A DNA stretch of 64,000 bases from Candidatus Latescibacterota bacterium (GCA_965248265.1 CBDFJF010000001.1:2816001-2880000), one strand, 5' to 3'; counted from the stretch's first letter, positions 49,861 through 54,695 are shown. Notes: a model not told the origin generated them from the sequence alone. Numbers and translations: made by a program.

Positions 49861-50817
49861 TCAACCTTCAACGACGCGCCCGTCGCCCGCCAACTCCCGC
49901 TTCCACGCCAGCAGCTTGTCGATGCTCACCCCGGAACCGCCGCAGACGATGACGAGTACCGTTTGCGCTGCCTCGAGGACGGGGGCGCGTTCGTAGACTG
50001 GGGTGAGGGAGGCGCCGCAGGAGGGTTCAACCAGTACCTTGTGATCGTCAGAAAACCTGACGCAGGCCTCGACGGCGGCCGCATCCGAAACGACCCAGGG
50101 CACGATGTTTCTCGTGGTCGCATATTCGTAAGCCTTCGAAGCTACACGCCGGGCTCCTAGAGTCGTCGCGATACTGTCAATCCGGTCCAGGATGACGAGT
50201 TTGCCGGCCGCCACCGAGGACGCCAACGAGTCGGCACCCTCAGTCTCCACCGCTACCACCTGCACCTCATCCCAACCACAGCCCTCCAACCCTTCCATGA
50301 TACCGCACAGCAGGCCACCACCCCCGACCGAAACGACGATGGCATCCGGCCGCTCACACTGCTGCGCCGCTTCTTCTATGATAGTCGCGTGACCACGCCA
50401 GGTGGTCGGGTGCTCGAACGGATGGATGTAAGCGCCGCCCAACTGCTTCGACAGCTTGTTGGCATGGACGTCGGCGACATCCCAGACATCGCCGTGGACG
50501 ATGACCTCTGCCCCCTCCAGTCCGATTCGCTCGCGCACTTCGGCGGAGGTCGTCTCCGGCACCACCACAGTCGCTGCCACGCCCAGCTGTCGGGCGCTGT
50601 AGGCGACGGCGAGGCCCGCATTTCCACCCGATGAACAGACAAGATGCCGGGTACCTGCCTCGACATGCTCGGCACAAACGCGACCGATACCGCGAATCTT
50701 GAAGGATCCGCCGGGCTGGTAGCAGTCCATCTTCAGCAGCACGGTCTTGCCGCATGCGGCGCTCATTTGAACCGACTCGAACACTGGCGTCTGGTGATGT
50801 AATTCGGTGCTGGGCAT
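49861..50817 (-). CDS. PLP-dependent L-serine/L-threonine ammonia-lyase (SDS/Cha1-like)
   Basis: LH..TP, LKMD..QP.GSFKIRGIG, SSGGNAG.A.AY, SVGGGGLL.G, LVEP.CGA, IVCGG. ATG overlaps the upstream stop (TGATG). Confidence 0.9.
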   Translation of the reverse strand: MPSTELHHQTPVFESVQMSAACGKTVLLKMDCYQPGGSFKIRGIGRVCAEHVEAGTRHLVCSSGGNAGLAVAYSARQLGVAATVVVPETTSAEVRERIGLEGAEVIVHGDVWDVADVHANKLSKQLGGAYIHPFEHPTTWRGHATIIEEAAQQCERPDAIVVSVGGGGLLCGIMEGLEGCGWDEVQVVAVETEGADSLASSVAAGKLVILDRIDSIATTLGARRVASKAYEYATTRNIVPWVVSDAAAVEACVRFSDDHKVLVEPSCGASLTPVYERAPVLEAAQTVLVIVCGGSGVSIDKLLAWKRELAGDGRVVEG

Positions 50818-52076
50818 CAATTGTAACATTCCACGACCGCCTGGCTCCTGATCCTGGCGCGCTCCCAGGCGTGGGGATAGCGCGGGTTGGCTATGGTATT
50901 GGTCCCGGGGATGTGTGGGAATCGCGCAGCGAAGTCCGGAACCAGTTCGAGGCCGAAGCCCGGTTTGTCTGATAGCACGATGTGGCCGTCCTGCGGACGC
51001 ATCGGCTCCGTGAACAGGCCGTAGCGAAACTCGTTCGGGTAGAGAAAAAACTCGACCATGTGTCCCGACGGCACGCCGGCGATGTAATGTGCGTTGCACA
51101 TCGTCCCCAGGCCGCTGTTCCAGTTGTGCATGACCATCTTGCGGCCGTAGAAGTCAGCGACACGACCGATGTACCAGTTTTCGGTGACGCCGATGCGATG
51201 GCAGTCGGTTTGCAGAGCGTCGTAGATCCCCTGCACCAGCCAGGGACCCACCTCACTGGCGCTGCGCAGACCCTCCCCTCCCCAGAGCATCACCCGCGGC
51301 ATCCTCTCTTTTAGCCGCAGGTAGTCATCGAACTGAGCCTCGCCGACGTCTCCCATCGGCTGCTCGAAGAAGAGAAATCCGAGGTCGTTGATGATGGGAG
51401 CAATCTCCAGACACTCCTCCAGGGTCCAGGTGTCGTAGCCCTTCTTTTCCAGGCCGAGGTCGAAATCCGGACCCACCGCCTCACGCAGCTGTCGACAGAT
51501 CTCCCCGAGTACGGTCGGCGTGATTCCATCCTCTTCCCAGTCGGTACCGGGGCGCCACTTGAAGGTGTCGAAGCCCATCTCCTTGTAGCTCAGAGCTTCC
51601 TCGATCAGGGCTTCGGCGCCGTAAGCAGAGCCGTCTCCCCTGTCATAGTAAGTCCAGTTGACTCCCCCGCTGGCGTAGGCCTTCACGTTCGGACTGGGGT
51701 CAGTATCCGTGGCCAGCAGTTTGTACACGGGCACTCCCTTGGCCTTGCCGATCAAGTCCCAACAGGCCACGTCGAGACCGGGGGACAGCGCCATCAACTC
51801 GACGTCGAAAGGATTGCGCCCGATGAGGTGATCACAATTCCCAAGCCGGGCCGCTCCCGGAGCAATACCGACCAGTCCCTGGTCGGTGAATACCTCGACT
51901 ACCGTCTCGTCGCATTTGGTCAGCACCACCGGTCCACACTCGTGGACGTAGGATCCGTCCGCTGGCTTGTAGCTGATCGGGTTGATCTTGATCTCCGTGA
52001 TCTTCAGTTCTTCCCTGCCAATACCCTCTAGCAAGTGCGTGAAACTCCCCCTCTTGCCTTGGTGCTCTCTCTCCAT
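50817..52076 (-). CDS. Mandelate racemase/muconate lactonizing enzyme family (enolase superfamily)
   Basis: LDVACWDLIGK, YASGG, FKWR, FFEQP, WGGE, MHNW, PGFG; own ATG at 52076 with AGGA upstream. In frame with the upstream L7Ae-like segment. Confidence 0.85.
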   Translation of the reverse strand: MEREHQGKRGSFTHLLEGIGREELKITEIKINPISYKPADGSYVHECGPVVLTKCDETVVEVFTDQGLVGIAPGAARLGNCDHLIGRNPFDVELMALSPGLDVACWDLIGKAKGVPVYKLLATDTDPSPNVKAYASGGVNWTYYDRGDGSAYGAEALIEEALSYKEMGFDTFKWRPGTDWEEDGITPTVLGEICRQLREAVGPDFDLGLEKKGYDTWTLEECLEIAPIINDLGFLFFEQPMGDVGEAQFDDYLRLKERMPRVMLWGGEGLRSASEVGPWLVQGIYDALQTDCHRIGVTENWYIGRVADFYGRKMVMHNWNSGLGTMCNAHYIAGVPSGHMVEFFLYPNEFRYGLFTEPMRPQDGHIVLSDKPGFGLELVPDFAARFPHIPGTNTIANPRYPHAWERARIRSQAVVECYN

Positions 52077-52451
52077 CGATTGTTCCTGTGGAGGTAGTGG
52101 TTCATTCCCGGACTCCAGCTTGGCGCGGATACCGTCAGCCAGTGAGCCGGCCTTGACTCCCATGATCGAGACGTCGCTGCGTCCCGCGGACACCGTCATC
52201 TGGCTCAGCGGCGAAACTCGAAAGACCCGGGTCCCTCTCTGATGTAGACGCGACACCTCAGCCATCGTCCCGGGGGCGACACCGGCGTCTGCGAAGATGA
52301 ACGCCAATCCGTTACCCGCGCGACGTACCGCTGACAGCCCCATCGCCACATCCCCCGATTGGCAACCTATGCCGACGAGGGAGGCCACACTCGCTGCCGC
52401 CGTGGACGACAGTTCTTCGATTGTGCGTTCATTGTCGTGTTGTACCATCAA
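52077..52451 (-). CDS. L7Ae/L30e-like (YlxQ-type) RNA-binding domain, no stop before the enolase
   Basis: SLVGIG..SG.V.MG..AV......FIFAD.GVAPGT...V...........M....GR.DVSIMGV....LADGI..KL matches the L7Ae pattern by eye. Confidence 0.6.
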
Positions 52452-52588
52452 CCTTAGCCCCTCAAGTCCTGCGCAGACACAGAGACAGCAGCCCGCAAGA
52501 CGACGGTCTGACCTTCCTCAAAACAGGTATATGTGAGCGACGCGGCCCACCATCCTGGGCAGATGGGTGGCGCCAGCGATTGGCCCGC

Positions 52589-53158
52589 CTACTTGAACGC
52601 CCGCGCCGCCGCCAGAATCACTCCGTTATCCAGACGGACACGGAAGTTCGGATCGACGTGCTGGAAAAGGATGTCACCCTTCCGGCTGGTGATGAAGACG
52701 GATGGTGCGGGCAATGGCTGCTTGCCCTCGCTCTGGAAGACGATCCCCATCTGTCGCATTAGGGTCAGATCGGGATCCGCGAGCAGGGTTATGGTGAGGG
52801 CCAGTTTCTCGGCGGTTTCGGCGAGTGCGGAAGGAGCTTCACCGCTGATGGCGAATAGTTGGTAACCAAGTTGAGAAAGCTGACCTGTTATTTTTTCCAG
52901 CTCGACCAGCTGGTTGCGGCAGAATCCTCACCATCCGCCGCGGTAGAAGACCAAGATGGTCGGTTTGGCGGCGACGGCGCTACCGATGTCGAAGTCCTCA
53001 CCTGCTGCCGTCTTCAACTGCGCCGCCGGCACCGACGCCCCAACCATCAACGGCCGTACCTGGCCGGGCGAGTTGGGCAGTGCCTGTCCTTCCACCACTG
53101 CGGCCGTAACCAGGAACGTCAGCGCCGTACAGATGGAGACGAGATGTCGTGTTTTCAC
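52589..53158 (-). CDS. Secreted AhpC/TSA (peroxiredoxin-like) selenoprotein, UxxC active site, 189 aa
   Basis: Signal peptide; KPTILVFYRGGW-UGA(52930-52928)-GFCRNQL; the frame continues QLFAISGE...LLADPD...PAPSVFI...GDILFQHVDPNFRVRL to TAG 52589. UGA replaces the first Cys of the family WCPxC motif. Confidence 0.88.
52897..52913 (-). promoter_or_regulatory. Putative bacterial SECIS element
   Basis: mRNA CCAGCU-GGUCG-AGCUGG: perfect 6-bp stem with a G-initiated GGUC loop, starting 14 nt after the UGA. Confidence 0.72.
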
Positions 53159-53170
53159 AGTACCTCCGGT

Positions 53171-53926
53171 TTAGGTCTCATCCTGCCTCTTGTTGAGCGC
53201 ATCAGGGGCACCCTGCTCAATCTGAATCGTATCAGTCGCTTCCTGAGCACTTCCGGTATCGATAGAGATCTGGCTAAAGAACCACTTGGTCAGCCACGCC
53301 GTCATCCACGGAATCGGAATGACCAGCATGCATCCAAGCATACCCACTACACAGCGCCACAGGATTTCGTGTCCCTTGCCGGAGAATGAGAACGCGGCAT
53401 CGCCGACGACGTTACGACACTGCCAGCGCACCCAAGCGGCCAGTACCCAGGCCCAGCCGATTATGCTGACGATTGAGACAATGTAGAACAGGTAGTACCC
53501 CAGATAGGGCCAGTACGAACCGACGAAGGAGATCCGCCCACTGACATTCAGGCGCATGGAAGAGACGAACCAGCGAAAAACCAGGAGATACAGCAGGAGA
53601 TTGATTGGAAGGAGAATAAGGGGACGCGCCATCATCAGACCCGGCGGCGCAACCTCCGGCCATGGCAAATTGCCAAACCACCCGATAAGAATGATCAGTA
53701 TTATCGGTAGCCAGATCTCGCCTCCCTGGCCCTCGAACTCGAGCTGGGTGCCGTCATCGGCTTCAGTCTGCTCGACGAACCACCTCGAAAACCACGCTGC
53801 CATCCACGGCGCGGGAACCACCAGAATACTGGCGACGAAGGCGAAGAGATATCTCCCGAACAAGGGCAAGGCCTTGCCGGTGAAAGTCAGACGCGCACCA
53901 GTGCTCAACACGGCAGCTTCAGTCAT
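53171..53926 (-). CDS. DUF898/YjgN-like membrane protein
   Basis: Repeated F.G...-TM-PW units (LTFTGK, LEFEGQGGEIW, ISFVGS, FSFSGKGHEILW); RBS AAGGAG. Confidence 0.7.
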   Translation of the reverse strand: MTEAAVLSTGARLTFTGKALPLFGRYLFAFVASILVVPAPWMAAWFSRWFVEQTEADDGTQLEFEGQGGEIWLPIILIILIGWFGNLPWPEVAPPGLMMARPLILLPINLLLYLLVFRWFVSSMRLNVSGRISFVGSYWPYLGYYLFYIVSIVSIIGWAWVLAAWVRWQCRNVVGDAAFSFSGKGHEILWRCVVGMLGCMLVIPIPWMTAWLTKWFFSQISIDTGSAQEATDTIQIEQGAPDALNKRQDET

Positions 53927-54086
53927 GTCCCTCTCCTTTTGCATCGTCCACCGACTACTCCCCAGGACCCATCAGGTGGGTTTGACCCTGACAAGATACT
54001 GCGTGCGAGCAGGGACAGGCAAATGGCTCAAAGTTCTGTGATTGGGTAGGTGGGTGCCGGAGATCGCGGCCGTCGTGCGAGTGGCT

Positions 54087-54695
54087 TCAACCCTGCAGGG
54101 CGTGCGCCGTCCGCAACCAGTCCAGGAGTTCGCCGTCGACCTCGGATGCGGACCGGAGCTTTACCGAGTGGCCGACACGAGAGGGTCCCAGTTCCTGGGT
54201 TTGGACGATGCGGCTGCTGCGAATCGGTTCGTCTGAAACGAAGCCGAGTCTGAGCCCTTCGTCCTGCACGGTGACGCTACCGAAATGATACTTGTGAATG
54301 AGATTGATCGAAGTCTTGACCGCGTCAACGCGAAACTCACCGAATCGACGCAGTTGGGCCACCAGGGCGTTGTAGATCTCCATCGAGACTGGGTTCTTGC
54401 CCTTGAAATGAATTTCGGTCGATGCCGTCTGGCAGGAGTGGGGTTGGTGAGTTTTGGCGAAAGGCCGTTCGCAGTTCGGGCATTTCCACTTGGAGGATTT
54501 CTTCGGAGCTGAGTTTTTGGCCGGGGCTTTGTTCCCAGCTGCCTTGGCCTTCTTGGCTGATGCCTTCTTGGCTGGTGCCTTCTTCGCTGCCGTCTTCTTG
54601 GCCACCTTCTTCACAGTCTTTTTGGCCGCTTTTTTCGCCTTCTTAGCCGCCGGTTTTTTGATCTGTTTTTTGGTCTGAGTCTTCTTTTTTGCCAT
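54087..54695 (-). CDS. DUF5655-like protein with Lys/Ala-rich histone-like N-terminal tail
   Basis: About 65-aa AKK-rich tail; WKCPNCERPF....Q.HSC; VKTSI; H..KL....EVDGEL..WL..A. Confidence 0.75.
   Translation of the reverse strand: MAKKKTQTKKQIKKPAAKKAKKAAKKTVKKVAKKTAAKKAPAKKASAKKAKAAGNKAPAKNSAPKKSSKWKCPNCERPFAKTHQPHSCQTASTEIHFKGKNPVSMEIYNALVAQLRRFGEFRVDAVKTSINLIHKYHFGSVTVQDEGLRLGFVSDEPIRSSRIVQTQELGPSRVGHSVKLRSASEVDGELLDWLRTAHALQG

Follow-up and report, generated by a model that had tools for sequence, protein, structure and literature searches.

The selenoprotein candidate lies on the minus strand of the window, the term we use for the whole 64,000-nt stretch of Candidatus Latescibacterota DNA analyzed here. 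A GTG start codon (53158..53156), with a Shine-Dalgarno-like GGAGG that was read from the sequence 4 nt upstream of it (53163..53167), opens a frame of 76 codons that runs to a TGA at 52930..52928, and the same frame remains open beyond the TGA for 112 further codons until a TAG at 52591..52589. Both observations agree with the first-pass annotation of this DNA, which had described a 76-aa ORF halting at a UGA exactly at the first Cys site of its motif, and a continuation of 112 codons in the same frame. When the TGA is read as U, the coding sequence (CDS; 52589..53158) comprises 189 codons followed by the TAG stop, and its 189-residue product contains the motif FYRGGW-U-GFC. This CDS is defined by the reading frame, by a domain match across the TGA and by similarity to the loci of 19 other species. 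The putative Sec codon specifies residue 77, the first position of the UxxC motif, and the TGC codon of Cys80 (52919..52921), the proposed resolving partner in the motif, is invariant in alignments A1, A3 and A5. The remaining features on the same strand are a predicted signal peptide or signal anchor (~residues 1-24; 53087..53158), an AhpC/TSA thioredoxin-fold domain (residues 39-163; 52670..53044) and a hairpin inside the CDS (52897..52913) that we interpret as a bacterial SECIS element.

The upstream gene ends with a TAA at 53171, 12 nt ahead of the selenoprotein start. It is a 257-aa ORF (53171-53944, minus strand) with the look of a multi-pass membrane protein and an internal repeat of two P-W-M-x-A-W-x-x-x-W-F stretches; it had no Pfam match at E <= 0.001 and was absent beside the orthologues. 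Farther upstream, the region 54087-54695 (minus strand) encodes a 202-aa protein that has a Lys/Ala-rich, histone-H1-like N-terminal half and then a DUF5655 domain. On the other side of the gene, the listed ORFs of an enolase-superfamily protein (MR_MLE_C; 50817-52451) and of a PLP enzyme of the PALP family (49861-51099), both on the minus strand, share ~280 nt, and their true starts are probably further downstream than those of the longest ORFs. A promoter and terminator scan of 52300..54200 found nothing terminator-like and a single weak promoter-like site, which lies inside the upstream gene. Searching three flanking window proteins by tblastn against 99 homologous loci with 1.5-kb flanks gave no matches, and Pfam profiles on the flanks of three related loci identified unrelated genes (a methylase and an MFS transporter; PhyH; LarA-N and an aminotransferase). 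The neighborhood is not conserved, and therefore the context offers no functional clue as to substrate or reductant.

Were the TGA a genuine stop, it would mark a pseudogene or separate a pair of small, unrelated genes, or else it would stem from a sequencing or assembly error of a TGC or TGT codon. Gene callers do end the ORF at the TGA, and the protein database holds the window gene as two proteins of 76 aa and 56 aa (P0052, P0055), just as the first-pass annotation had foreseen in stating that pipelines would split or drop the gene. Moreover, 7.3% of the stop-to-stop segments in the 64-kb window (60% GC) reach at least 112 codons by chance, and the open continuation is weak evidence by itself for this reason. 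Because such an open frame is no rarity and the hairpin by itself is just moderately unusual, the case for recoding is built on homology and conservation. The Pfam profile PF00578 (AhpC-TSA) matched residues 39-163 in a single match that spans the TGA (75.8 bits against a cut-off of 26; E 3.7e-21), and PF08534 (Redoxin; 61.4 bits) spans it as well. Since both matches cross the TGA, neither half is a complete domain, which argues against a true stop. The homology that continues through the TGA, together with the conservation seen in other genomes, puts the gene far beyond chance.

UGA and cysteine codons at the motif column

A search of 60 related genomes with the read-through protein yielded 21 strong matches (E <= 2.5e-38, 40-54% identity), each with exactly one TGA inside. 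At the column level we examined 19 related-species loci of these 21, and in all 19 the TGA occupies the same FYR..W-U-xxC column (20/20 with the window included), followed by 112-119 conserved codons with no further stop. A separate scan of contigs (genome_contigs) found 98 relatives, 80 of which were kept; many of the Latescibacterota rows among these 80 loci come from the same genomes as the 60-genome search, and the two sets overlap to that extent. The UGA column holds TGA in 23 of the 80 loci and TGC or TGT (Cys) in the other 57. Nineteen of the TGA loci are titled Latescibacterota or Latescibacteria and four Acidobacteriota (two of them titled Multivoradales), and the Cys loci include Balneolota, Verrucomicrobiota, Shewanella and other Gammaproteobacteria. 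In alignment A1, this column is Cys throughout the 13 full-length database homologues, most of the named ones being called 'peroxiredoxin-like family protein' by their source. The U-x-x-C motif is present in all 24 Sec forms. By the aligned sequences, the column is a classic Cys/Sec pair, the pattern that the first-pass annotation had proposed to look for among homologues.

These comparisons bear directly on the possibility of a true stop. An identical TGA column in 19/19 loci of other species, at a protein identity of just 40-54%, is difficult to reconcile with it, as are the intact, conserved stretch of 112-119 codons downstream and the four Acidobacteriota loci that share the arrangement. 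The first-pass annotation had held that relatives all carrying Cys, with no conserved hairpin and a decaying downstream frame, would speak against recoding; the relatives instead carry TGA in an intact frame. It had also pointed to reads with TGC or TGT as a sign of error. The codon lies within assembled contigs of three studies, one of which may be the source of the window and one of which represents a ~95%-identical strain on an 8.5-kb contig; the listed differences, which are all but one of the total, include none at 52928..52930 or in the hairpin. We thus regard a true stop, including its sequencing-error variant, as very improbable.

Short-read contigs from runs X1, X3, X5 and X7 break around FYRGGW-UGA (window 52928-52969), and other, more abundant contigs share just those ~42 nt and then diverge. 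One such contig continues after the UGA into a different sequence, which also has an inverted repeat. This suggests that the contigs sharing the ~42 nt belong to additional Sec-form homologues, carried by different organisms present in these samples.

In a quick-method tree of 81 rows, the Sec/Cys label needs four changes on the best tree, and the well-supported branches force just one change, so that the tree favors neither one origin of the Sec form nor several.

A hairpin downstream of the UGA

The hairpin CCAGCU-GGUCG-AGCUGG starts 14 nt 3' of the UGA and is composed of a 5' arm (52913..52908), the loop GGUCG (52907..52903) and a 3' arm (52902..52897); its perfect stem, its loop and its distance from the UGA are as first described. 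Folded alone, it has an energy of -8.8 kcal/mol and a z-score of -2.65, with 4 of 200 shuffles folding as well, and in its 66-nt context the fold has a z-score of merely -1.69. According to the legend of Fig. 2 in PMC13188914, the bSECIS consensus has a loop of 3-9 nt and a stem of 4-16 bp, with a G in the first two loop positions, a UGA-to-loop distance of 16-37 nt and a minimum free energy of -7.5 kcal/mol or lower. The window hairpin, with 6 bp, the loop GGUCG, 20 nt from UGA to loop and -8.8 kcal/mol, lies within all of these ranges. An Rfam scan of 52400..53400 at E <= 1 returned no SECIS family, its sole match being a chance miRNA.

To follow the hairpin across homologues, we used a gapless alignment of 69 nt around the UGA. 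It contains a 7-pair helix in a single fixed register, located 17-33 nt from the U of the UGA. Among 20 Latescibacterota sequences, 95.5% of the helix cells are paired and two pairs are compensatory, and among 16 sequences that include the four Acidobacteriota, 94.6% of the cells are paired and four of the seven pairs are compensatory. When the 3' partner was slid by 1-3 columns as a control, pairing dropped to 8-41% of the cells. Since most Sec forms are related (Latescibacterota), the compensatory changes represent few independent events. In addition, the stem overlaps the codons of a conserved Q-L-x-x-L peptide, and its conservation is therefore partly driven by the protein. One covarying pair, nevertheless, is between position 1 of a Leu codon (CUG/UUG, a synonymous change) and position 3 of a Glu/Gln codon, which protein constraint does not explain.

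As the Q-L-x-x-L peptide is encoded by Cys and Sec forms alike, the Cys forms provide a natural control for this overlap. All seven pairs are formed in 20 of the 23 Sec forms and six pairs in the other three, as against none of the 57 Cys forms with seven pairs and five with six; the latter five may reflect chance or codon constraint. The difference has a Mann-Whitney p of ~1e-12, a value that is uncorrected for phylogeny and overstates independence because the rows are related.

Selenocysteine machinery and the genetic code

The first-pass annotation had predicted that the genome would carry selA, selB, selC and selD. In the 7.32-Mb genome (2 contigs) we found a tRNA-Sec (68.9 bits), which ARAGORN calls SeC with the anticodon tca, together with selA (560.9 bits), selB (332.8 bits) and selD (352.2 bits), all four above their curated cut-offs. 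The best selA and selB matches are free of internal stops. The selD gene (G000:C2:1010876-1011799, locus L022) contains one in-frame TGA, so that selenophosphate synthetase is probably itself a selenoprotein here. One in-frame TGA is likewise found in 4 of the 13 AhpC/TSA-type matches in the genome. The three further genes of this kind (G000:C1:1291206-1291577, G000:C2:2540469-2540810 and G000:C1:1773297-1773647) are likely additional Prx or Prx-like selenoproteins. With TGA in selD and in 4/13 AhpC/TSA-type genes, this genome clearly invests in selenium. In the related genomes, many paralogous matches contain one TGA too.

The same in-frame TGAs could be taken to mean that TGA is generally a sense codon in this organism, one for Trp or Gly, say, as under NCBI tables 4 or 25, with no Sec-specific recoding. 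Several observations contradict this. First, 29 of the 39 window ORFs of at least 300 codons end in TGA, and selA and selB, as noted, lack internal stops. Second, the in-frame TGAs are single and occur in redox proteins, and at the present gene the TGA pairs with Cys, not with Trp or Gly. Third, the genome holds a complete Sec machinery. A general reassignment of TGA is accordingly the least credible explanation that we considered.

We conclude, from the sequence evidence, that 53158..52589 (minus strand) is very probably a genuine Sec-decoded gene of the AhpC/TSA thioredoxin fold. The original proposal that the UGA is recoded to Sec is upheld by the Cys/Sec pair, by the TGA in 19/19 loci and by a covarying hairpin that is complete only in TGA forms. 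In the proposed mechanism, SelB would bind the in-CDS hairpin 14 nt downstream of the UGA and bring Sec-tRNA(Sec) to codon 77, where the UGA would be read as selenocysteine.

Fold, active site and probable export

An AF2 model built from a 53-row alignment has a mean pLDDT of 93.7 and a pTM of 0.85, and consists of an N-terminal helix (residues 4-17) with low pLDDT, a linker and a thioredoxin-type fold. In the model, U77 is located directly before the helix 78-96, such that the W-U-x-x-C motif stands at the start of helix alpha-1. The best PDB folds are Bcp4, BcpB, AhpE and PrxQ, and ResA and DsbE are also listed; by sequence, the PDB gave weak matches alone, to PDIA4 (2.7e-6) and to the BCP structure 2cx3 (2.5e-4). 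In the alignment to 2cx3, C80 corresponds to the peroxidatic Cys, U77 to the Thr/Ser of the catalytic triad, P152 to the catalytic Arg and R73 to a Pro. Thus, of the canonical Pxxx(T/S)xxC motif and the catalytic Arg, just the Cys (C80) is kept, and C80 is also the sole Cys of the mature part. Pro152 is invariant in alignments A1 and A3, and occupies what we take to be the cis-proline position of thioredoxin folds. On these sequence grounds the predicted active site is thioredoxin-like, not peroxiredoxin-like, with W-C-x-x-C and a Pro at the presumed cis-proline site.

The N-terminus is basic and continues into ~17 hydrophobic residues, with a Kyte-Doolittle maximum of 2.17 over residues 7-22; a VEG/QA sequence follows the hydrophobic core, and the cleavage site of the signal peptide was judged by eye. 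The N-termini of the homologues are similar. Export, or anchoring with the domain outside the cytoplasm, is likely from these features. The earlier claim of an exported protein is therefore plausible as far as its basic start and hydrophobic stretch are concerned, and its periplasmic reading has to share the ground with an uncleaved membrane anchor. Lipoprotein modification through Cys11 was also considered and rejected by eye, as the preceding V-S-I is unlike the lipobox that marks such cysteines.

Proposed chemistry

From the sequence and the model, we somewhat favor a thioredoxin-like selenol/thiol oxidoreductase that acts outside the cytoplasm and is not a canonical peroxiredoxin. The U77 selenolate would attack an oxidized substrate, such as a disulfide or a sulfenate, and Cys80 would resolve the adduct to give an intramolecular selenylsulfide. 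The enzyme would then be re-reduced from the membrane, perhaps through the single DsbD/CcdA-type protein of the genome, in which one DsbD_TM gene was found.

A selenol peroxidase is a possible, less probable alternative. Here, H2O2 or organic hydroperoxides would be reduced directly by Sec77, in the manner of glutathione peroxidase, and Cys80 would resolve the selenenic acid, making the protein a periplasmic scavenger of peroxides. Selenols react fast with peroxides, AhpC/TSA is the best Pfam family, the top structural matches are the peroxiredoxins Bcp4, BcpB, AhpE and PrxQ rather than ResA, and the sources of the Cys homologues label them peroxiredoxin-like or 'antioxidant AhpC'. However, two of the three positions of the peroxiredoxin triad are lost, with Sec in place of Thr/Ser and, in place of Arg, an invariant Pro as in thioredoxin-like proteins, and both the W-C-x-x-C signature and its placement at a helix N-terminus are thioredoxin-like.

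A bolder reading, which we consider unlikely, takes the Sec forms as a distinct exported peroxiredoxin-like-2 subfamily, in which the hairpin and the gene moved as a unit between Acidobacteriota and Latescibacterota. Movement as a unit is proposed because the register of the hairpin is the same, and its arms are near-identical, in both phyla. The subfamily would be characterized by Sec at the peroxiredoxin Thr position, as a periplasmic selenol redox enzyme acting on a substrate outside the range of the Cys forms. If true, it would offer a tractable model for the co-evolution and transfer of an in-CDS SECIS element and its Sec codon.

Representation in databases

In a database of 5.8 billion proteins, we found no full-length Sec form of the clade; the best full-length match is 45% identical and contains Cys. 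Relatives at 69-87% identity are present in the protein database merely as N-terminal fragments, and the fragments of three relatives (P0053, P0056 and P0059) all end at ...FYRGGW. Annotation stops at the UGA both in this gene and in at least 23 orthologues from other genomes, and needs to be corrected. Automatic annotation probably failed to rescue the window gene because its matches to the SelL-related NF040769 and to TIGR00385 fall short of their cut-offs. Since the protein database searched contains just N- and C-terminal fragments, the protein is missing from redox inventories of MAGs from Latescibacterota and Acidobacteriota. With 24 Sec and 57 Cys versions of a single protein, of which just the Sec versions have the complete hairpin, the sequences also make a clean natural set for training or testing bacterial SECIS predictors.

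Comparison with known systems

Among exported redox proteins, ResA/TlpA/DsbE (CcmG) share with the window protein the W-C-x-x-C at the N-terminus of helix alpha-1. They are likewise exported or anchored thioredoxin folds with extra Prx-type elements and have a Pro at the presumed cis-proline site, and the fold matches include structures of ResA and DsbE (TM 0.56-0.64). Membership in DsbE/CcmG was considered and rejected, as the TIGR00385 score of 20.1 bits lies below the cut-off of 123.15. The gene is not flanked by genes for cytochrome c maturation.

The BCP/PrxQ and AhpE peroxiredoxins provide the closest structures, the best being 3hjp Bcp4 (TM 0.76/0.90), then 5epf BcpB and 1xvw AhpE. The window protein differs from canonical peroxiredoxins in having Sec at the Thr/Ser position, Arg73 at the position of the -7 Pro and Pro152 at that of the catalytic Arg.

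The best NCBIfam match is the SelL-related redox protein NF040769. SelL, whose motif is UxxU, resembles the window protein in combining a Prx-like fold with Sec in an xx-spaced redox motif. Assignment to the SelL-related family was rejected at 45.8 bits against a cut-off of 120. PMC2398784 describes SelL as Prx-like.

The Cys-containing 'peroxiredoxin-like family protein' of Bacteroidota, Balneolota, Verrucomicrobiota and Gammaproteobacteria is 33-41% identical over the whole length (A1), and also has FYRGGW-C-P-x-C, an LP-x-P-S-V-F loop and a hydrophobic N-terminus. It differs from the Sec forms in carrying TGY instead of a Sec codon and in lacking the full 7/7 hairpin (0/57), and many of its members have a ~20-residue insertion that is missing from the Sec forms. 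Its NCBI name is presumably based on CDD cd02970 (PRX_like2). That family is described by a CxxC whose second Cys is the Prx peroxidatic Cys, the rest of the triad being absent. The corresponding features, a CxxC-type motif and C80 at the peroxidatic Cys, are seen in the alignment to 2cx3.

Among selenoproteins, the closest counterpart is the Prx-like UxxC family. Table 2 of PMC2398784 lists pfam00578 UxxC as a selenoprotein family, 'Prx-like 1', with 225 sequences from the GOS ocean survey, and a 2022 review (PMC9312934) takes a shared domain and a shared Sec motif as its two criteria for a family. A table in PMC13188914, a 2026 review, gives Prx-like thiol:disulfide oxidoreductase selenoproteins of pfam00578 with UxxC/UxxU, and has a further entry for cd02970 ('peroxiredoxin-like family protein') with the motif UxxS. 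By the rule of domain and Sec motif in the 2022 review, the gene can be assigned to the known Prx-like pfam00578 UxxC/UxxU family. In a full-text literature search, no title or abstract was found to name Latescibacter and a selenoprotein together, and supplements of the cited papers may list related sequences; in one paper with both words in its text, the phylum figures merely as a binned genome, in an unrelated context.

Catalogues of selenoproteins have included Prx-like UxxC members since the mid-2000s. This kind of protein is familiar and no surprise to the specialist, and the gene leaves the knowledge of Sec decoding and of Prx-like selenoproteins unchanged. With that family it has in common the PF00578 domain, the UxxC motif and a hairpin just after the UGA. 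What sets the window copy apart is its origin in Candidatus Latescibacterota and its predicted export signal, by which it adds a probably exported selenoprotein to a poorly studied candidate phylum.
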